A DNA stretch of 53,272 nt from the IMG/VR virus record IMGVR_UViG_3300045988_098362; one strand, 5' to 3'. Positions 3,224 through 48,977 of the stretch are shown piece after piece. The first letter of the stretch is position 1, and the number at the start of each line of letters is the position of its first letter. Source of the DNA: a virus. Made by a program: the position numbers and the translations under genes. Under the pieces are notes generated by a model. That model was not told where the DNA came from, ran no database searches, and saw only the letters and a list, made by a program, of their open reading frames with translations.

Positions 3224-3486
3224 AAGAAGCAATCCGTGCTCGATGCCCTTTGTGCGGCGGGGAAATTATAGTTTCCGAGTATTATCAGACATCACGAGAT
3301 TACAAAGTTCTGATGAACGGGAAACTGTCCAAACGGTACATCGTCACCGATGCCGGTCCCATAAATTCGATGACAGCATCATGCGGCAGTTTTTGCGGCG
3401 CATACTGGGAGCATGAGGAGTTTGACATTTCCGAGGACGGAATGTTTTACGATAAAAAATATTTGGAAGAAGAGGTGAGCACATGA
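3220..3486 (+). CDS. Zinc-ribbon-like small protein, function unknown
   Basis: GTG 3220 overlaps the upstream stop (GTGA) and has a GGAGGTGG SD 6 nt upstream. Contains CPLCGG...CGSFCG. Confidence 0.45.
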   Translation: MKEAIRARCPLCGGEIIVSEYYQTSRDYKVLMNGKLSKRYIVTDAGPINSMTASCGSFCGAYWEHEEFDISEDGMFYDKKYLEEEVST

Positions 3487-4016
3487 AAGCAGTCCTTATC
3501 AGCATCAAGCCCAAGTGGTGTGACCTGATCCGGCGGGGGCGCAAGACGGTTGAGGTCCGCAAGACCTGCCCGAAGCTGGAAGTGCCGTTCAAGGTTTATA
3601 TCTATGAGACCATGGATGGCGGTCGTGGGAGCGGCCTTGTTTTCGGTGAGTTCACCTGCACCGGCTTTGATGTGTTCAGGCCGATCGGTAAGGGCATCAG
3701 CATCAAGCGCTTCCCGGCGCTGTATGAAAGCTGCCTGACCCTTGATGAAATCGTAAAGTATGCGCAGGGTGAGCCGGTATACGGCTGGCAGATCTCTCAG
3801 CTGAAGCTCTACGAGGAACCGCTCAAGCTGGAGGACTTCTCTCGGCACGGCTTCTGTGGCATGAACGGGACTGGTGTTTGCGGCAATGCAGACTGCGAGA
3901 ACTATCAACCGTCCGGCAACTACATGGATCCGCCTACCTGTGCAATCGATGGCTGCATCCTGTATGAAGCGCCGCAGAGTTGGTGCTATGTGGAAGAAAG
4001 GGGATGCTCAGAATGA
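3483..4016 (+). CDS. ASCH-domain protein
   Basis: The N-terminus MKAVLISIKPKWCDLIRRGRKTVEVRK matches the ASCH beta-barrel signature. The start overlaps the upstream stop. Confidence 0.6.
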   Translation: MKAVLISIKPKWCDLIRRGRKTVEVRKTCPKLEVPFKVYIYETMDGGRGSGLVFGEFTCTGFDVFRPIGKGISIKRFPALYESCLTLDEIVKYAQGEPVYGWQISQLKLYEEPLKLEDFSRHGFCGMNGTGVCGNADCENYQPSGNYMDPPTCAIDGCILYEAPQSWCYVEERGCSE

Positions 4017-4386: not shown

Positions 4387-4577
4387 CCAACGGTGACTTT
4401 ATCCGTTCGATGTCGGATGCAGACATCCGGGAAAATTTCACCCAGCTGCTCTGTGAATTCGTCCAGCGGAAGCAGACGAGCCGTTGCCGGAGCAGGGAAC
4501 ATTGCTTCCACTGCATCAAGGACTGGCTGAAAGAAGAAAGCGTGGCGCTTAGGAGGGCCGATGATGACACTGAATGA
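4383..4577 (+). CDS. Hypothetical protein (64 aa)
   Basis: The ATGA overlaps the upstream stop. It lies in the co-directional string. Confidence 0.4.
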   Translation: MTNGDFIRSMSDADIRENFTQLLCEFVQRKQTSRCRSREHCFHCIKDWLKEESVALRRADDDTE

Positions 4578-4785
4578 GATTCGCAAGCTCCGGGGGATGA
4601 CCCTCAGCGAGTTTAGCCGGAAGTCAGGGCTGTCCCCGCATACTGCACGGAACCTGATGGGCTACAGGGAACTCTACGGAAATCCTCGGATGGACACGAT
4701 GGTGGATGCGGCGCGGGCGCTGAATGCGGTCGTGACGATCACCCCCAAGGGCGTGACGATCCGCGCCAGAAAGGAAAGCGCATGA
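4561..4785 (+). CDS. Small HTH (XRE-like) DNA-binding protein
   Basis: MTLSEFSRKSGLSPHTARNLMG resembles a helix-turn-helix. Confidence 0.5.
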   Translation: MMTLNEIRKLRGMTLSEFSRKSGLSPHTARNLMGYRELYGNPRMDTMVDAARALNAVVTITPKGVTIRARKESA

Positions 4786-5018: not shown

Positions 5019-5118
5019 TCCGACTGCAAGACCTGTATTTTTGCCGTAAAATGTGCTAAAATAATTGGGTAGCACCTCTACAAATTGGAGGCCGCGCACA
5101 TATTACTGGAGGTCAGGT

Positions 5119-5517
5119 ATGACGGTGCAAGAGCTGTCCAGATACTTAACGCTTCGCAAGCAGATTGATGAGGACAAAGAAATCTACGAGAACATGTGCC
5201 AGAAGATGGGGCCAGCATCCCCGTCACTGTCAGGAATGCCCCATACTCCCGGTGTTCGTGACAAGGTTGGTGATCTGGCCGCAGACCTGGCAGATTTGGA
5301 TGCCGGCATCAAAGAGCTTGAAGCCGAAGCCGAGAGGGTGCTTCCAGCAATAGAAGAATTCTGCGTGTCGATTTCAGACCCGCGGATGCGCCTGATTTTC
5401 AGGCTCCGTTTCGTGCGGTGCCGCTCATGGGCAGAGATCGCAGGAACACTCGGACGGTACTATACCGAAGCCGGAGTGTGCAAGATGGCATATAATTACC
5501 TCAAAAAGATAGCCTGA
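5119..5517 (+). CDS. Sigma-70 region-4-like late transcription regulator (RinA/ArpU/DUF1492-like)
   Basis: A GGAGGT SD lies 5 nt upstream of ATG 5119. The C-terminus RLIFRLRFVRCRSWAEIAGTLGRYYTEAGVCKMAYNYLKK resembles a region-4 HTH. It sits just upstream of the packaging and late genes. Confidence 0.5.
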   Translation: MTVQELSRYLTLRKQIDEDKEIYENMCQKMGPASPSLSGMPHTPGVRDKVGDLAADLADLDAGIKELEAEAERVLPAIEEFCVSISDPRMRLIFRLRFVRCRSWAEIAGTLGRYYTEAGVCKMAYNYLKKIA

Positions 5518-5531
5518 ACCAAATTCAAAAG

Positions 5532-5577
5532 GCCGCTGCTTCAGTGTGAAAATGCTGATTCAGCGGCTTTTTCTTTT
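5532..5577 (+). terminator. Rho-independent terminator after the regulator gene
   Basis: Stem gccgctg...cagcggc (plus an inner tcag pairing) followed by tttttctttt. Confidence 0.6.
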
Positions 5578-5613: not shown

Positions 5614-5687
5614 ATGACTTCCAATGGTTTCTGATGGGTTCCAATGACTTCCAATCGGTACGAATGCTTTCCAATGCTTTCTGATGA
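5614..5687. repeat. Helically phased TTCCAAT repeat cluster (possible late-promoter or regulator binding array)
   Basis: TTCCAAT occurs at 5619, 5639, 5649 and 5669 (spacings 20, 10 and 20 bp). ATGACTTCCAAT occurs at 5614 and 5644. TTTCTGATG occurs at 5628 and 5678. Confidence 0.6.
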
Positions 5688-5891
5688 CGCAAGGCGCAAG
5701 GCATGGTATTATTATGCTACAAAATCCTAAACAAAGCCGGGCGGTGCAGATCATCTGATGTGCGCCGCCATTTTTATGGGAAGGAGGATTTTTCGCCCCG
5801 CGTTGCTCCTTTGCGCGGGAAATCGTGCTTCCAGTCATCCCCGGTTCGCCGCCGGAGCTGTCTGAAAGCAGGTCATCATAAGGAGCAATTC

Positions 5892-6593
5892 ATGGAAATC
5901 AGAAAAGTACCTATCAGCCTGCTCAATGCAGCACCCTACAATCCGAGAAAGGATTTGCAGCCCGGAGACCCGGAATATCAGAAGATTGCCCGGTCAATCG
6001 AAAAGTACGGCTGTGTTGAGCCTATCATCTGGAACGAGAAGACCGGCAACGTGATTGGTGGTCACCAGCGCTTGAAAGTGCTGGCGGCGACTGGCGCGGT
6101 GGAAGTGGATGTCAGTGTGGTGCAGCTGTCCCTTGAGGACGAAAAGGCCCTGAATTTGGCGCTGAATAAAATCAGCGGCCAGTGGGACAATGAAAAGCTG
6201 TCTGCCGTCCTGCAGGATCTTTCTGCAGGCTTCGATGTTGAGGTGACAGGCTTCGACCAGCATGAGGTTGACGCACTGGTTGCATCCTTTGCGGAGAGCG
6301 GCCACGAGTACGAGCTTCCCGGCTCTGAACCCTATATCAATAATTTCTTTGATTCCGGGGTTCAGGCAAAGCCCAAGGCCGAGGAACCCGCTGCCGTTCC
6401 TGCACCGGAAGCCCCGGCACAGGATGCAGAGATGCACCCCAGCGCTGCACCCGCACCCAATGAGGTGCAGGCAGTCCAGCCCAGCGGGAAAAAGACCGTC
6501 ATTGTGCCTAATCTGTCTGAACAGGATGCAACCACCCTCGTGGACGTTCTCAAGGACATGGGCTTTGCGTACCGTCTGGAGGATGCGGCATGA
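5892..6593 (+). CDS. ParB/Srx-fold protein, candidate DpdB-like partner of the DNA transglycosylase
   Basis: An AAGGAG SD lies upstream of ATG 5892. ISLLNAAPYNPRK...VIGGHQRLKVLAA...LNLALNKISGQWD is the ParB N-terminal domain pattern. A Pro/Ala-rich linker and a small C-terminal domain follow. The end overlaps the next gene. Confidence 0.6.
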   Translation: MEIRKVPISLLNAAPYNPRKDLQPGDPEYQKIARSIEKYGCVEPIIWNEKTGNVIGGHQRLKVLAATGAVEVDVSVVQLSLEDEKALNLALNKISGQWDNEKLSAVLQDLSAGFDVEVTGFDQHEVDALVASFAESGHEYELPGSEPYINNFFDSGVQAKPKAEEPAAVPAPEAPAQDAEMHPSAAPAPNEVQAVQPSGKKTVIVPNLSEQDATTLVDVLKDMGFAYRLEDAA

Positions 6594-6928
6594 CACAGTA
6601 TGTGATATGCGCACTTCAGATGGAGGGCTTTCACTGCTGGCCGGAGGCTGATGGAGAACTCGCATATCTCAAAAACTCACACCGTCATATCTTTTTTATT
6701 ACGGCAGAGTTTCCAGTTCACAATGCAAACCGTGAAATAGAAATCATCAGCCAACAGAATGCAATCAAGCGCTATCTTCTCTCCAAGTATGGGGATGAGG
6801 ATGGCGCTTGTCATTTTGGGCGGCGCTCCTGTGAGGACATCGCCGCTGAAATTCTGAACCAGTTTGAAAACTCCACATCCTGCACCGTCCTTGAAGATGG
6901 GTTTGGGGGTGCGCGAGTTGTTCGATAA
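6590..6928 (+). CDS. QueD/6-pyruvoyl-tetrahydropterin-synthase-fold protein (divergent)
   Basis: At 112 aa it is QueD-sized. EGFHCW...NSHRHIFFI...SCEDIAAEI...CTVLEDG lines up by eye with QueD AAHRL...LHGHSF...TSEVLA...VKET. I see no Cys at the catalytic position. Confidence 0.45.
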   Translation: MTQYVICALQMEGFHCWPEADGELAYLKNSHRHIFFITAEFPVHNANREIEIISQQNAIKRYLLSKYGDEDGACHFGRRSCEDIAAEILNQFENSTSCTVLEDGFGGARVVR

Positions 6929-7808
6929 CAACATCAAAGTGCATTTTGCCGGGAGCGACGGCGGAGAGATATTCTACGCCGCCCTGCTGGCAGCACAAAC
7001 CAAATACCGGCTGTTTTCCTGTTACAAGTACATTCTCAAGAGCCGCCCGGATGATGATTTCCGGCTCCCGGCGGACCATGTGATCCGTGTGCAGGATACA
7101 GTAAACCGTCATGTGATACAGGATAGCGGCCTGTTCACGTTGATGTTCGGTGCCGGGAAAGGACAGGCGCAGACGTTGGAAAGCCTGACCGAGTGGCAGG
7201 ACAAGCTCATAGCATTCGTGCAGCAGAACAATCTCCGCTGTACCTGCGTCGAGCTGGACTGTCAGAAAGTGCTGGGCGTGAGGGAAGCGTGGTACTTTCG
7301 GGAGCGGATGAAGAAACTGCTGGATAACCCCCAAATCAACGTATTCCATTTTGAGGATGGGATGCGGGGGCTGGACAGCCTGATAGATTTCAGCGACTAC
7401 ATAGCCCTGAGCATCCCAGAACTGCGCATCATCAAGCCGAAGACATTCCGGGAGGACACCCGCTATCTGACCCACTACATCAAAAACCGCAAACCTGAGA
7501 TCGACATCCACCTTTTGGGATGCACCGATGTGAAGATGATCGCGCAGAACAGCTTCTGCACCTCAGCAGATAGCACCAGCTGGCTGTCCGGGGTCAAATA
7601 CGGCTGGTTCGATGATGGCAACCAAAAGGCGCACATCAACCAGTTCCGAAAAGACCTCATAGAACAGCGGCTATCCGCGGTGAGGACCGTCACAGAGGGG
7701 AGGGGGCTGGATCTGACAGACAAAACGCTTCTCTATGGAGCGAGAGCCAGCCTGTGCGCCACCATCTGCAAACAGAAATATACACGAGCCGCAGGCTCAC
7801 AAGAATAG
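6897..7808 (+). CDS. dpdA: DpdA-like DNA (7-deazaguanine) transglycosylase, TGT superfamily
   Basis: VIQDSGLFTLMFG resembles the TGT DSGGFQ catalytic motif, and DIHLLGCTD resembles the TGT xHxxG motif. Neighbours are the QueD-fold and YhhQ genes. The start is uncertain (TTG 6864, ATG 6897 or GTG 6909). Confidence 0.6.
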   Translation: MGLGVRELFDNNIKVHFAGSDGGEIFYAALLAAQTKYRLFSCYKYILKSRPDDDFRLPADHVIRVQDTVNRHVIQDSGLFTLMFGAGKGQAQTLESLTEWQDKLIAFVQQNNLRCTCVELDCQKVLGVREAWYFRERMKKLLDNPQINVFHFEDGMRGLDSLIDFSDYIALSIPELRIIKPKTFREDTRYLTHYIKNRKPEIDIHLLGCTDVKMIAQNSFCTSADSTSWLSGVKYGWFDDGNQKAHINQFRKDLIEQRLSAVRTVTEGRGLDLTDKTLLYGARASLCATICKQKYTRAAGSQE

Positions 7809-7816
7809 GAGCAAAA

Positions 7817-8488
7817 ATGAAAAAGACAAACGAGAATTTGGTGATCCTGATTACGTTGTTTGCAATCAGCATCGTCATTGCCAATGTGACCGGCGCACGA
7901 ACCATTACCACCGGCCTGCATATCGGCCCCATCGAGCTGGCCTTGAGCGGCGGCGCCATCACCTATGCCGTCACATTCCTCTGCACAGACATCATCGGCG
8001 AGATCTGGGGCAAGGCCACGGCCCAGCGCGTGGTGAAGTATGGCTTTATCGGCCAGATTTTTGCCACCGCCTGCATTATGCTCACCGGCGTTTTCCCTGC
8101 AACGGATGCCGTCATGGACAATGCCTATCAAACCCTGCTGGGGCAGAACTGGATCTTCGTCATCGGCAGTCTGTCCGCATACCTCGTTTCCCAGTCGTGG
8201 GACGTGGCCGTATTCCATGCAATCCGCGACCGCTACATTGCCAAGCATGGCAGCACCAAGGGTGGCCGCTGGCTATGGAATAACGGCAGTACCATCACGA
8301 GCCAGATCTGGGACACGGTGATCTATGCGGTCATCAGCTTCGGCTTCGGTCTGGGCTGGGTGCATACCCACGAGGGCCGGATGCAGCTTATCGGTATCAT
8401 CATCGGGCAGTATCTTCTGAAAGCCTGTCTGGCGCTGTTGGATACTCCCTTTTTCTATTTCTTCACAAGAAATGCAGACCGCCGCTGA
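7817..8488 (+). CDS. yhhQ: YhhQ/COG1738 queuosine-precursor (preQ0/preQ1) transporter
   Basis: Polytopic membrane protein. FLCTDIIGEIWG, SAYLVSQSWDVAVFHAIR and ITSQIWDTVIYAVISF align with E. coli YhhQ FLATDLTVRIFG, MAYALGQILDVHVFNRLR and GNVSDTLAFFFIAF. Confidence 0.8.
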   Translation: MKKTNENLVILITLFAISIVIANVTGARTITTGLHIGPIELALSGGAITYAVTFLCTDIIGEIWGKATAQRVVKYGFIGQIFATACIMLTGVFPATDAVMDNAYQTLLGQNWIFVIGSLSAYLVSQSWDVAVFHAIRDRYIAKHGSTKGGRWLWNNGSTITSQIWDTVIYAVISFGFGLGWVHTHEGRMQLIGIIIGQYLLKACLALLDTPFFYFFTRNADRR

Positions 8489-8567: not shown

Positions 8568-9371
8568 ATGGACAAGCGGGATAAAGGCTACACCCTGTAT
8601 AAAAAAGGGCTGTCCTGCACCGAGATTTCCAAGAAGTTGGATGTGTCTATCAACACAGTAAAGTCATGGCGCAAGCGCTACTGGACGCAGGGTGCAGATG
8701 CACCCGCAAAACGCACCCTGCACCCAGAGGATGCACCCGCCGCACCTGACCCTGAAACAAGACCAAAACAGGGCGCGCCGCCGGGAAATGTCAATGCCGT
8801 TGGAGCAGGTGCGCCAAAGGGAAACCGCAATGCCGTCAAGCATGGTGGGTGGTCTGAACTGATGTTCCGAAGCTGGACAGAGGAACACCGTCAGCTGCTG
8901 GATGCCTGTGACGAAGATGTGGATGCAGAAGAACTGCTCATAAATGAGCTGAAATTGCTGACCGCCCGCGAGGGCTATCTGCTGGAGCGTATCTCCCACT
9001 ATTCCAAAGAGGGAGCCTATGTTCAGACGCAGACCACATCCAAGAGAAGCAGGAACTTCAAGCGGCTGGATGGTGACACTGAAAAGGAAAAGAATGATTT
9101 GCAGGCCTATGTGGAGGCCATTGATGCCAAAGTAGCCGCCGGGGAGCGTTTGCCGGGCAATGAAACCCTGACAAATTCCACTCTGGAAGCGTCTTACCTC
9201 ATCATAGAGCGCTTGAACAAGCTCCTGACTGATGTACAGCGGCAGAAAGCCCAGTGCATCAAACAGCTGGCCGAACTGCGAAGCATGAGCGGCGGCGGAA
9301 AGAGTGAACTGGTTGACGACTGGGTAGCAGCCATTCAGGCCGCAGAGGAGATGGACGATGACGCGCCGTGA
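8568..9371 (+). CDS. terS: Terminase small subunit
   Basis: N-terminal HTH (GLSCTEISKKLDVSINTVKSWRKRYW) and the motif GAPPGNVNAVGAGAPKGNRNAVKHG common in TerS proteins. It lies directly upstream of and overlaps TerL. A 4-codon mini-ORF (8553-8567, MVTM-stop) abuts the ATG. Confidence 0.7.
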   Translation: MDKRDKGYTLYKKGLSCTEISKKLDVSINTVKSWRKRYWTQGADAPAKRTLHPEDAPAAPDPETRPKQGAPPGNVNAVGAGAPKGNRNAVKHGGWSELMFRSWTEEHRQLLDACDEDVDAEELLINELKLLTAREGYLLERISHYSKEGAYVQTQTTSKRSRNFKRLDGDTEKEKNDLQAYVEAIDAKVAAGERLPGNETLTNSTLEASYLIIERLNKLLTDVQRQKAQCIKQLAELRSMSGGGKSELVDDWVAAIQAAEEMDDDAP

Positions 9372-33809: not shown

Positions 33810-33987
33810 TGCAATGCTTGGTCACATGGAGTAGCCATAGGTGAAAGACGACCATAGCAAAAGGAGAGGTACTTCCCTGAGGATAAACCTCTAAAACTGC
33901 TTTTCGATATGCTGACACGGACGCTTCTTGCATGGCGCGGGATGCATCTTACCGCGTTTCATGTGCCGGCATAAAGCAGATTAGACG

Positions 33988-35208
33988 ATGCCCTACAATT
34001 CATCTGTACGAGGAGCGAATACTTTTATGACAAGTCAGGAGCGCCATGAAGCACGATACCAGCGCCGCCGGGCAGCACGCCGAGCCAGACAGGAAGCCCG
34101 TTGTGCCGCCCTCGGTTCGTTGGAAGAAGTATTCAGCTACCACACGATGTTCAAATATGGCCGGAAATGCTGCAACGGTGTACGCTGGAAGCAGAGCACG
34201 CAGAACTTTGAGCGGCATCTGTTTTCCCACACAGCGAAGCAGCGGCGGCTTATTTTGGCAAAAAGGTGGCGGCCTAAGAAATACGTTCATTTCACGGTCT
34301 GCGAACGCGGCAAGATTCGTGGGATTGACGCTCCTCATATTACAGACCGACAAATCCACAAGGTCATCAGCAAGGAAGTACTGGAGCCGCTTTACGACCC
34401 CAGCATGATCTATGACAACGGTGCAAGCCGGATTGGTAAGGGACTGCACTGGCAGATCAAGCGCATCAAACAGCAGCTGGCACGGCATTACCGCAAGTAT
34501 GGCCGTGCGGGCGGGGTGTTACTGCTCGACCTGAAGAAGTTCTTTCCTTATGCACCCCATTCCATCATCTATCAGCGGCACCAGCGGTATATCCTGAACC
34601 CTGATTTTCGGCGGATAGCAGATACCATTATTGATACTGCTCCCGGCGAATTTCCGGGCCGTGGGATGCCGCTGGGCGTTGAGCCGAGCCAGCAGGAAAT
34701 GGCGGCGATGCCCAGTGCAGTGGACAACTGGATCAAATGCCAGATGTCCACGCACAGCGCCGGGCACTACATGGACGATTACTGCATTATTCTCCCGGAC
34801 ATCGAAGATCTGAAAAAGCTGGGACGCGCCATCGTGCGCCAGTTTGAAATCCGCGGAATCCCGGTCAACAAGAAAAAATGCAAAATCATCCCGCTGACGA
34901 AGCCGTTCCGCTGGTGCAAGGCTCGTTTTACCTTGACCGAGACCGGAAAAATCAAAGTCAATGGTAGCCGTGATGGTGTGATACGCGCCCGGAGGAAGCT
35001 GAAGCTGTTTCATCGGGAATGGCTGGCCGGGAAACGTACCCTGCAGGAGGTGGCGCAGTATATGAACTGCCAAGAAGCCTACTATAAAAATTTTGATGAC
35101 CATGGGCGGCTGCTGCGCCTGCGGCGGCTTTGCTATGCAATTTTTGGAGGTAGAGTGCCTTGTTCAACAAAATCATCAAAGCCAGTGATGGCACCGTCCT
35201 TGCCTTGA
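33988..35208 (+). CDS. DGR reverse transcriptase (alternative start ATG 34027)
   Basis: YMDD catalytic box (GHYMDDYCII), LGVEPSQ (the DGR-type LGxxxSQ motif) and IRGIDAPHITDRQIHKVISKEVLEPLY...ASRIGKGLHW. Confidence 0.85.
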   Translation: MPYNSSVRGANTFMTSQERHEARYQRRRAARRARQEARCAALGSLEEVFSYHTMFKYGRKCCNGVRWKQSTQNFERHLFSHTAKQRRLILAKRWRPKKYVHFTVCERGKIRGIDAPHITDRQIHKVISKEVLEPLYDPSMIYDNGASRIGKGLHWQIKRIKQQLARHYRKYGRAGGVLLLDLKKFFPYAPHSIIYQRHQRYILNPDFRRIADTIIDTAPGEFPGRGMPLGVEPSQQEMAAMPSAVDNWIKCQMSTHSAGHYMDDYCIILPDIEDLKKLGRAIVRQFEIRGIPVNKKKCKIIPLTKPFRWCKARFTLTETGKIKVNGSRDGVIRARRKLKLFHREWLAGKRTLQEVAQYMNCQEAYYKNFDDHGRLLRLRRLCYAIFGGRVPCSTKSSKPVMAPSLP

Positions 35209-47803: not shown

Positions 47804-48450
47804 TCGACTACAACATCATCGCAACTGGCAGTAAAGGCAATGCGGTGGTGATTGACCAAAAAATCCTGATTGACTGCGGCGTTTCGTTCAAGGCGCTGTC
47901 GAAAGTATACCGGGCGTTGAAGTTGGTTCTGCTCACTCACATTCATGGTGACCACTTCCAGCCGACAACGCTCCGGCTTTTAGCGGAAAAACGCCCCACA
48001 CTCCGCTTTGCGTGCTGTGCATGGCTGTGCAAGCCGCTGGTGGATGCAGGGGTGCCGGTCTCGCAGATTGATGTTCTGGAGCCGGGGCACATGTACGGAT
48101 ACGGCATCTGTAATGTCAGGCCCGATATGGTCAAGCACAATGTTCCGAACTGCGGGTGGAAAGTCTGGCTCCAGTCAGGAAAGCTGTTTTACTGCACAGA
48201 CATGAACAATTTGAACGGCATCACGGCTCCAAACTATGACCTGTACATGGTGGAAGCCAACTACGATGACGCAGAAATCCAAGCCAAAATTGCAGAGAAA
48301 AAGCTGAACGGTGAGTACATTTACGAGCTTGGAGTGCTGCACAACCACATGAGCCTTGCCAAGATCAATGACTGGTTATACGCCAACATGGGGCAGAACG
48401 GCACCTATATCTATATGCACTGCCATCAGGACAAGGAGAATGTCACATGA
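47800..48450 (+). CDS. Metallo-beta-lactamase-fold hydrolase (possible exonuclease partner of RecT)
   Basis: HxHxDH motif (LLTHIHGDHF). ATGA coupling to recT. Confidence 0.65.
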   Translation: MIDYNIIATGSKGNAVVIDQKILIDCGVSFKALSKVYRALKLVLLTHIHGDHFQPTTLRLLAEKRPTLRFACCAWLCKPLVDAGVPVSQIDVLEPGHMYGYGICNVRPDMVKHNVPNCGWKVWLQSGKLFYCTDMNNLNGITAPNYDLYMVEANYDDAEIQAKIAEKKLNGEYIYELGVLHNHMSLAKINDWLYANMGQNGTYIYMHCHQDKENVT

Positions 48451-48977
48451 CCGGGCGGCTGGTTGACATGGCTTTTACACTCGGTGGAAAACAGCGGGTC
48501 ACGCTGGAAATCAACGGCGACTTCCGGGAAATCTGGGACAAGCTCCATCAGGAGCCGGTTCTGGACGTGGAAATCAAAAAGCACCGTGAAAAGCGCAGCC
48601 TTTCGGCAAATGCGTATTTCCACGTCCTCTGCAACAAGATTTCTGCGGAGACCGGCGAGAGCGAGGATGCCGTGAAACGGCGGCTCGTGGTTTCGTATGG
48701 AACGCTTGCCCGCGACAAGGACGGCAAGACTGTTGGACTGAAACTTTCGCCGACCGTAGATCCCAGCGACTTTTACCCCTATGTCCGGCTCTATGAAACC
48801 CGGCAGGAAAACGGAAAAGATTACTCCTGCTATTTTGTCTACAAGGAAAGTCACAAGATGGATTCAAAGGAATTTGCTCATCTTGTGGATGGTGCAATCG
48901 AAGAAGCCAAGGAACTGGGCATTCAGACGGATACCCCGGAACAGCTGGCTCGTTACAAAGAAGAATGGTCGAAATGA
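48447..48977 (+). CDS. NinB/Orf-like recombination mediator
   Basis: EKRSLSANAYFHVLCNKIS and MDSKEFAHLVDGAIEEAKELGI line up by eye with lambda NinB NRSLDQNRKLWACLGDVS and VGEFAELLELIQAFGTERGV. Confidence 0.4.
   Translation: MTGRLVDMAFTLGGKQRVTLEINGDFREIWDKLHQEPVLDVEIKKHREKRSLSANAYFHVLCNKISAETGESEDAVKRRLVVSYGTLARDKDGKTVGLKLSPTVDPSDFYPYVRLYETRQENGKDYSCYFVYKESHKMDSKEFAHLVDGAIEEAKELGIQTDTPEQLARYKEEWSK

Follow-up and report, generated by a model that had tools for sequence, protein, structure and literature searches.

Four co-directional genes at positions 5892-8488 of the IMG/VR virus record IMGVR_UViG_3300045988_098362 (53,272 nucleotides; this whole stretch is called the window here) encode a ParB-N domain protein, a homolog of DpdL, a DpdA-type protein with the TGT fold and a YhhQ transporter. 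Judged from the sequences and structural models of these proteins, the module probably modifies the phage DNA with some 7-deazaguanine, and we hold this with good confidence. More specifically, the genes may form a late-expressed operon that swaps guanine in the phage's own DNA for 7-deazaguanine before packaging, with a precursor that is not made by the phage; for this fuller reading the chances seem even to us. The module is most likely a known type of phage anti-restriction system in a variant that relies on salvage. The sequence-only reading of the window had described four overlapping or abutting genes just upstream of terS, and all four open reading frames (ORFs) were found there on the + strand.

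The protein of 303 amino acids (aa) was analysed by its fold and its motifs. The AF2 model (pLDDT 92.7; 45 homologs) is a TIM barrel of the TGT type. When the model was compared with the PDB by Foldseek, the top 36 matches were bacterial TGT (probability 1.0, TMq 0.55-0.63), and in the BFVD phage "queuine tRNA-ribosyltransferases" were found, with DpdA3 of phage phiST (M4SLA5) at rank 26 (TM 0.43). The sequence matched phrog_887, annotated as "queuine tRNA-ribosyltransferase", at 1.2e-18. No Pfam match, including TGT PF01702, was obtained at E <= 0.1, the NCBIfam model for DpdA (NF041059) reached 11.6 bits with a cutoff of 200, and a profile search against the PDB sequences gave no TGT; it is the PHROG family and the fold that detect the kinship. 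The proposed membership of the TGT superfamily with a DSG motif was thus borne out, and the profile searches did not place the gene product outside TGT/DpdA.

In the 45 homologs the residues D76-S77-G78, E119, D121, H205-x-L207-G208 and D225-S226-T227-x-W229 are invariant. The motifs of the window protein, IQDSG and ADSTSW, can be aligned to those of DpdA1 of phage CAjan (CDSSSW) and of Bacillus phage BCD7 (IDSG, GDSTTW). Both catalytic aspartates are present, D76 in the DSG motif and D225 in the DS motif that follows HxxG, and by motif analogy they would be the counterparts of Asp102 and Asp280 of TGT. The invariant H205 is the His of the HxxG strand that is typical of DpdA1 and absent in DpdA2, and the similarity to CAjan DpdA1 is weak. 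A CxCxxC motif as in the Zn subdomain of TGT is not among the conserved cysteines of the 45 homologs. When a tiny database was searched with the family hidden Markov model (HMM), the N-domain of BCD7 gp021 (2e-15) and CAjan DpdA1 (3e-5) were detected. Membership of the DpdA3 subfamily was rejected; BLASTP to CGPG_00065 of phiST gave E 0.07, covering the HxxG...DS stretch only, and the family HMM gave E 0.28. By sequence and model, the protein looks like a DpdA-type candidate transglycosylase of a distinct, unannotated subfamily nearest to the DpdA1/BCD7 group.

The 112-aa protein had been read as a member of the QueD/PTPS family. As to the fold this was correct, since the AF2 model (pLDDT 96.7) had E. 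coli QueD (4ntk) as its top Foldseek match (TM 0.71) and hence shows the QueD/PTPS T-fold; in a profile search against the PDB sequences there was only noise, and fold comparison alone worked. The identity as QueD was not upheld. The catalytic Cys is replaced by Leu and the Gly by Arg, so that the CxxxHGH motif is missing, and neither Pfam (PF01242) nor NCBIfam (TIGR03367) gave a match, whereas the true QueD in the related locus L048 passes its model with 92.8 bits (cutoff 89.25). Instead, residues 27-35 (LKNSHRHIF) fit the signature LxxxHRHxF, which replaces CxxxHGH and defines DpdL, the proposed 7-carboxy-7-deazaguanine (CDG) decarboxylase that gives 7-deazaguanine (DG) in the pathway of phiST to 2'-deoxy-7-deazaguanosine (dDG) (PMC10516641). 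Invariant in 25 homologs are H15, L27, H31, R32, H33, F35, E51, C81, E82, E102 and D103.

The founding DpdL, CGPG_00067 of phiST, was matched by BLASTP over the full length (1e-16, 30% identity), and the family HMM detected the DpdL of phiST (1e-31), of MA9V-3 (7e-38) and of ACP17 (gp125, 5e-22). In a phage collection searched by tblastn, matches at E <= 1e-6 were Chryseobacterium MA9V-3, Burkholderia BCSR5, the Cellulophaga phiST group and Synechococcus BUCT-ZZ01; Acidovorax ACP17 was weak (E 0.09) and others were at E >= 0.5. Gene context and HMM were checked for phiST, MA9V-3 and ACP17, while BCSR5 and BUCT-ZZ01 stand on the tblastn match. The DpdL of MA9V-3 forms the C-terminal domain of a longer protein (293 aa). 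We conclude from its sequence that the 112-aa protein is a DpdL homolog and not a QueD. This identity points to dDG rather than to dPreQ0, and, by analogy to phiST, we put a dDG product made via DpdL at a little under even.

The 223-aa protein matched Pfam Vut_1 with 145.6 bits (cutoff 27.2; 2e-42) and TIGR00697, "queuosine precursor transporter", with 119.3 bits (cutoff 50.95). The equivalog model of E. coli YhhQ, PRK11212, remained below its cutoff (33 versus 252, 4e-8). By these family matches the protein is unambiguously a YhhQ/COG1738 queuosine-precursor transporter, as had been proposed, and it is reasonably likely that it supplies the precursor.

The synthesis genes for such a precursor were searched for in all 504 ORFs of 50 aa or more that a six-frame translation of the window gives. 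The phmmer queries were FolE, QueD, QueE and QueC from CAjan, BCD7, phiST and ACP17, and HMMs were those of QueD, QueE and FolE of the relatives. None of the four was found and nothing scored better than E = 0.0015, in agreement with the sequence-only reading, in which FolE, QueE and QueC had been noted as absent. This best value, a match of BCD7 QueD to 48372-48974, was dismissed as it had no Pfam support. The idea of a 7-deazaguanine modification from a host-derived or imported precursor thus stands with respect to the DpdA-type cassette, the importer and the lack of synthesis genes.

The host genus, Faecalibacterium, is predicted to be a queuosine auxotroph and hence to need salvage. All five Faecalibacterium genomes were scored as auxotrophs in a 2019 reconstruction (Rodionov Table S1, PMC6593275; the column order was read from the E. 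coli row). CDG, preQ0 and preQ1 are treated there as shared gut vitamers that are imported by YhhQ, QueT or QrtT (PMC6593275). In addition, F. prausnitzii has a preQ1-III riboswitch (PMC11625349).

To compare the module with its relatives, 79 loci from an IMG/VR scan and 28 from a GTDB scan were annotated with iterated HMMs, and the resulting 107 loci were dereplicated at 90% DpdA identity to 41 clusters. Since the arrangement recurs in these 107 related loci, it is not a chance juxtaposition. The conserved core is ParB-DpdL-DpdA, and the DpdL gene lies directly upstream of dpdA or overlaps it in about 85% of the DpdA clusters, down to 38-40% DpdA identity. The DpdA family comprises 783 clusters at 50% identity, and its members occur in prophages of Oscillospiraceae, Veillonella, Bacteroidales, Flavobacteriales and Treponema; the exact window proteins are on at least 1000 public contigs, the prophage being very common in Faecalibacterium. 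Everywhere the DpdA and the DpdL of this module are annotated as "hypothetical".

The first protein of the core, ParB, matched Pfam ParB_N exactly at the cutoff (26.3 bits, 7.9e-6) and phrog_620 at 7e-47. Further matches were to phrog_498, a ParB-methyltransferase N-terminus (3.5e-44), and to the N-terminus of PADLOC MTase_II (1.6e-38), and the protein can be aligned to the ParB/Spo0J CTPase domains 4umk and 6sdk. It consists of an N-terminal NTPase-fold domain with a GGHQR motif, a low-complexity Pro/Ala linker and a C-terminal domain of about 35 aa. Among 70 distinct module-linked ParBs the residues N17, P18, R19, G57, H58, R60, N92, W98 and D99 are conserved, G57 and R60 in at least 94%. 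With the ParB_N fold and the GxxR nucleotide-binding motif, the protein belongs to the ParB/Srx superfamily. This part of the earlier proposal of a DpdB-like protein was right, but membership of the DpdB family was rejected. Bacterial DpdB has about 390 aa, a DGQQR motif and an SspE-like C-terminal helical domain (PMC10164549), whereas the window protein has 233 aa and GGHQR and is without the SspE-like domain. No DpdB or DndB match was found in NCBIfam or PADLOC, it being unconfirmed that both libraries hold a DpdB model.

The linkage of ParB to the module was counted in the uncut loci, taking one per 90% DpdA cluster. ParB was present in all 23, as was DpdA, and DpdL in 20, whereas the commonest gene family outside the module occurred in 6-7 of the same loci, in which at least four large-terminase families are represented. 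Since this linkage to the DpdA family is near-universal, a DpdB-like role of ParB is a reasonable analogy. Bacterial DpdA needs the DpdB ATPase (PMC10164549). In phiST and MA9V-3, the gene between those of DpdL and DpdA3 (CGPG_00066, L002 6293-6772, and L003 6333-6803, respectively) was previously unannotated and codes for a small P-loop NTPase with a Pfam AAA_18 match above cutoff. An NTPase beside DpdA is thus a recurring theme, with DpdB in bacteria, AAA_18 in phiST/MA9V-3 and ParB here. By this analogy, we slightly favour ParB as a required partner of DpdA.

The other view, which we hold to be rather unlikely, is that DpdA works alone and that ParB is a mere neighbour, namely a DNA-binding, partition or packaging protein. 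DpdA1 of phage 9g indeed modifies DNA in E. coli without a ParB (PMC6884629), in Oscillospiraceae phages the same ParB-N domain can be fused to a methyltransferase or stand by itself as a "partition" protein, another ParB is encoded at 752-2362 of the window, and the module ParB is not of the DpdB family. Against this view, ParB is present in every uncut locus, and no backbone family exceeds 7 of 23. ParB also stays in the cassette when its position shifts, as in the L031-L042 group, where two tandem ParB copies lie downstream of yhhQ, and it is linked to the module in Oscillospiraceae, Bacteroidales, Veillonella and Treponema alike. In addition, there are repeated cases of ParB domains attached to enzymes that modify DNA (PMC12783734).

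The slot after dpdA is occupied in different ways, in the lineage of the window by YhhQ. In the set of 41 clusters, YhhQ is found in 12 (with DpdL), QueD-QueE-FolE in 14 and both in 3 (L041, L102 and L108). The QueD, QueE and FolE proteins of the relatives are genuine, with NCBIfam scores at or near cutoff. QueC accompanies QueD-QueE-FolE in none of the 107 loci, and wherever QueD-QueE-FolE loci are intact upstream, they have DpdL (14-17 DpdA clusters, without exception). By analogy, QueD-QueE-FolE without QueC is a CDG-terminating pathway, the gene set of phiST, whose DNA contains 100% dDG (PMC10516641). The loci that lack DpdL, which make up 5 DpdA clusters, always have YhhQ. The sole QueC gene was found in L095 (Oscillospiraceae metagenome-assembled genome CANPXW010000018.1, 2163-5752), where the order is DpdA-QueC-YhhQ-ParB-ParB-TerS without DpdL; this QueC reaches 156 bits with TIGR00364, above the cutoff. 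Since the CDG consumers DpdL or QueC adjoin YhhQ where CDG synthesis genes are lacking, CDG is suggested as the base that is supplied from outside, and this is our main argument for it. Upstream of the L095 cassette, at 385-1107, there is a PA0069/Rv2578c-like radical-SAM gene.

The junctions of the four genes were then inspected. The stop codon of the ParB gene and the start of the 112-aa gene overlap as ATGA, with GGAGGA ahead of it; between the 112-aa gene and the TGT-like gene the overlap is 32 nt; and the ribosome-binding site of yhhQ, AGGAG, covers the dpdA stop codon. Judged from these junctions, the four genes are a translationally coupled operon. Downstream of yhhQ, terS starts at 8568 and terL at 9358. 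The sequence of the window agrees to about 98% with that of Faecalibacterium phage Roos (PP479939.1), an inducible temperate phage with headful packaging that can be obtained from a cultured strain (PMC11792537). The packaging start of Roos determined by PhageTerm (PMC11792537) corresponds to 8501 in the window, between yhhQ and terS. The module is located in the block of lytic genes directly before the pac site and terS, away from the lysogeny module. In the annotation of Roos all four genes are "hypothetical". A prophage copy of the module, 98% identical, was found by the GTDB genome scan in the chromosome of F. prausnitzii UT1.

From the identities, folds and motifs of the proteins, the operon structure and the comparative pattern we infer the biochemical steps given below, and with them which base is imported, which nucleoside results and what ParB does. 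From the gut lumen, YhhQ would take up a 7-deazaguanine as the free base, most likely CDG, which the host presumably cannot supply de novo. DpdL, a QueD-like T-fold zinc enzyme with the Cys to Leu exchange, would decarboxylate CDG to DG. DpdA would then exchange G for DG in double-stranded DNA by double displacement, with Asp76 as the acid/base and Asp225 as the nucleophile. ParB-N may act as an NTP-dependent DNA-loading or sliding partner of DpdA, analogous to the DpdB ATPase. The exchange of G for DG would occur shortly before headful packaging, and the dDG-containing DNA would resist host restriction.

A wider formulation is more doubtful as a whole. Here, an abundant prophage of the human gut would hypermodify its DNA with dDG by scavenging CDG, a vitamer shared in the community, via its own YhhQ; DpdL would decarboxylate the CDG and DpdA would insert the product with a ParB-N NTPase clamp as a required factor. 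ParB, or the AAA_18 protein of the phiST type, would be the factor that was missing in the 2023 reconstitution, and the system would be modular in three parts, with YhhQ or FolE/QueD/QueE for supply, DpdL, QueC or none for tailoring, and ParB plus DpdA for insertion.

Several points weigh against the proposed operon and its pathway. Genes with ParB domains are often found in the vicinity of phage packaging genes. The promoter and terminator predictions around the module were no better than in shuffled sequence. The window DpdA is not of the subfamily DpdA3, with which DpdL is found in phiST, and no positions in DpdA separate the DpdL-positive from the DpdL-negative loci, the DpdL-negative lineages being few and scattered. 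The decarboxylase activity of DpdL has never been shown, even for phiST, and heterologous DpdL plus DpdA gave no dDG (PMC10516641). The predicted host auxotrophy comes from the 2019 reconstruction of other Faecalibacterium strains. That YhhQ transports CDG is our extrapolation, as the only substrates experimentally known for the E. coli protein are preQ0 and preQ1 (PMC6884629, PMC7544227). Finally, a YhhQ 73% identical to that of the window is encoded in loci without DpdL (L046, L069/L070), and the imported base may accordingly be usable by DpdA directly.

The last two points lead to the alternative that YhhQ imports preQ0 or preQ1 and that DpdA inserts it as such, giving dPreQ0 or dPreQ1, with the 112-aa protein not involved in the inserted base or having some unrelated function. 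The preQ1-III riboswitch shows that preQ1 salvage belongs to the host biology (PMC11625349), in five DpdA clusters there are loci with ParB-DpdA-YhhQ that lack DpdL, and the window DpdA keeps the HxxG His that is typical of the preQ0-inserting DpdA1. We nevertheless consider direct insertion unlikely. DpdL is kept in the module, overlaps dpdA and has all its signature residues intact, with 47-100% identity across the lineages that have only YhhQ, and a useless gene would not be kept at such identity. Moreover, DpdL is strictly coupled to CDG-terminating pathways in the relatives. For QueF or another preQ0-processing gene, there was no T-fold or que match in the window besides DpdL, although no search specific to QueF was made.

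That the cassette serves the lysogen, with YhhQ as a conversion gene for queuosine-precursor uptake and the TGT-like enzyme acting on tRNA, would suit a temperate phage (PMC11792537), a host scored as a queuosine auxotroph and a fold that is ancestrally that of tRNA enzymes, but it is highly improbable, as the 303-aa protein groups with the phage DpdAs and not with bacterial TGT by its motifs and fold neighbours, does not have CxCxxC among its conserved cysteines and is encoded in the lytic block before the pac site and terS and not beside the lysogeny module, and as YhhQ can trade places with a set of CDG synthesis genes, which is always accompanied by DpdL and DpdA.

The proposed CDG-to-dDG pathway was compared with the known systems. 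In phiST, the cassette comprises FolE-QueD-QueE, MazG, DpdL (CGPG_00067), the AAA_18 NTPase (CGPG_00066) and DpdA3 (CGPG_00065) (PMC10516641). The window shares with it the DpdL family, the adjacency of DpdL to a TGT-fold DpdA, the lack of QueC and a small NTPase gene in the cassette, and relatives of the window such as L048 and L074 have the set of FolE/QueD/QueE with DpdL and DpdA. Unlike phiST, the window has YhhQ instead of FolE/QueD/QueE, ParB-N instead of the P-loop AAA_18 and a DpdA that is not DpdA3, and it represents a temperate gut prophage of the siphovirus type, whereas phiST is a marine lytic phage.

The Queuovirinae CAjan and 9g encode DpdA1 and FolE/QueD/QueE/QueC, and CAjan in addition YhhQ (PMC6884629, PMC7544227). 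As in CAjan, the phage YhhQ of the window is part of a DpdA cluster, and the DSG, HxxG and DSSSW-type motifs are shared at a weak HMM similarity (3e-5). CAjan, however, makes its own preQ0, has a dispensable yhhQ and is without DpdL and ParB, whereas in the window YhhQ is the only phage-encoded possible supply route. In the Dpd system of Salmonella Montevideo, DpdA and the ParB-like ATPase DpdB insert preQ0 (PMC10164549). There too, the gene of a TGT-fold DNA transglycosylase lies beside one for a ParB/Srx-superfamily protein with the NTPase fold. The window differs by its short GGHQR-type ParB without the SspE-like domain, by having no match to a DpdA or DpdB model at threshold and by lacking the genes DpdC-K.

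Cluster B mycobacteriophages such as CRB2 have a ParB-superfamily protein as ORF1 and DpdA as ORF2, followed by QueC/D/E (PMC6392294). As in the window, the ParB-superfamily gene is immediately upstream of dpdA at the genome end by the packaging genes, and it was already proposed there as a dpdB analogue. Unlike the window, CRB2 has the full preQ0 pathway with QueC and neither DpdL nor YhhQ; the two were likened by description, not by sequence. A further parallel are the fusions of ParB-N to DNA methyltransferases (phrog_498, PADLOC MTase_II), whose N-domain matches the window ParB at 1e-38 to 1e-44. Both accompany a base-modifying enzyme, but the window ParB is a separate polypeptide and its partner a transglycosylase. 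ParBc genes next to phage DNA-modifying enzymes (CmoX) have been noted as unexplained (PMC12783734).

It has been stated that "some phages encode YhhQ", and for CAjan and others the combination of a phage YhhQ and DpdA has been published (PMC6884629, PMC7544227). A phage YhhQ with DpdA, a ParB gene beside a phage dpdA, and DpdL with dDG are thus already known. As to the view that a phage-borne importer with a DpdB-like partner is uncommon, each of the two genes has a precedent, the former in CAjan and the latter in CRB2. In our literature search we found no description of this DpdA subfamily, of DpdL paired with a transglycosylase other than DpdA3, of the substitution of YhhQ for FolE/QueD/QueE, of the alternation of DpdL and QueC or of the near-universal ParB linkage.

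If the proposed pathway is true, a large share of the gut temperate phages would have restriction-resistant 7-deazaguanine DNA, with consequences for phage-host modelling, nanopore base-calling and restriction-based methods. The DNA modification of these phages would then depend on cross-fed queuosine precursors of the gut. For the "other unknown enzymes" invoked when DpdL and DpdA failed in E. coli (PMC10516641), there would be a concrete candidate in ParB.

Among the related sequences, several fused proteins were seen. P0061 and P0077 are in-frame fusions of ParB to the C-terminal half of DpdA, and P0141 and P0150 join the DpdL N-terminus in frame to the YhhQ C-terminus, all with about 99% identity to the window; in P0002, which has 13 members, DpdL and DpdA are fused by a frameshift within the 32-nt overlap. 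None of these fusions was counted as Rosetta-stone evidence. The fusion proteins, from Roos-like contigs, are either natural deletion variants without dpdA or assembly artefacts.

Table 1. Positions of the module genes and of two upstream sequence elements in the window
Feature	Position	Strand	Details
ParB-N protein	5892-6593	+	233 aa
DpdL homolog, T-fold	6590-6928	+	112 aa
DpdA-type TGT-fold protein	6897-7808	+	303 aa
YhhQ/COG1738 transporter	7817-8488	+	223 aa
Hairpin + T-run, terminator-like boundary upstream of module	5527..5572	+	inverted repeat 18 nt, 83% complementary, 10-nt loop
Phased array, ~8 head-to-tail 10-nt units (ATGnnTTCCA / ATGnTTTCTG)	5614..5693	.	repeat search, spacing exactly 10 nt

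Two elements precede the operon (Table 1). The terminator scan also marked 5553-5565 plus a T-run, and it is uncertain whether the hairpin belongs to the module. The array of 10-nt units is located in the intergenic region of about 375 nt upstream of the ParB gene and abuts a promoter-like site at 5684-5712 (9/12 matches with a TG extension). From its sequence, the phased array could be a candidate row of protein-binding sites, at which a late activator might bind or ParB be loaded. In Roos, the minus-strand orf75 is annotated across the array and is probably spurious. No riboswitch, of the preQ1 class or another, was found within the operon or ahead of it; a match to the fluoride aptamer was sub-threshold and on the wrong strand and was dismissed.

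Farther upstream, the 150-aa ORF at 5065-5517 directly 5' of the module had no Pfam match, and its neighbours are a Cro/C1-type HTH protein (4561-4785) and a weak ASCH-domain protein (3483-4016). The second ParB (+ strand, 537 aa) has the domains ParB_N and HTH_ParB and is distinct from the module ParB; its gene is also present in several Roos-like viral contigs. Elsewhere in the window, a full-length RT-2 RNA was detected at 33817-34036 on the + strand (Rfam RF03077, 175 bits), which we take to be an RNA of diversity-generating retroelements (DGRs), an assignment of ours that is absent from the Rfam output. So taken, it is consistent with the DGR described for Roos (PMC11792537).

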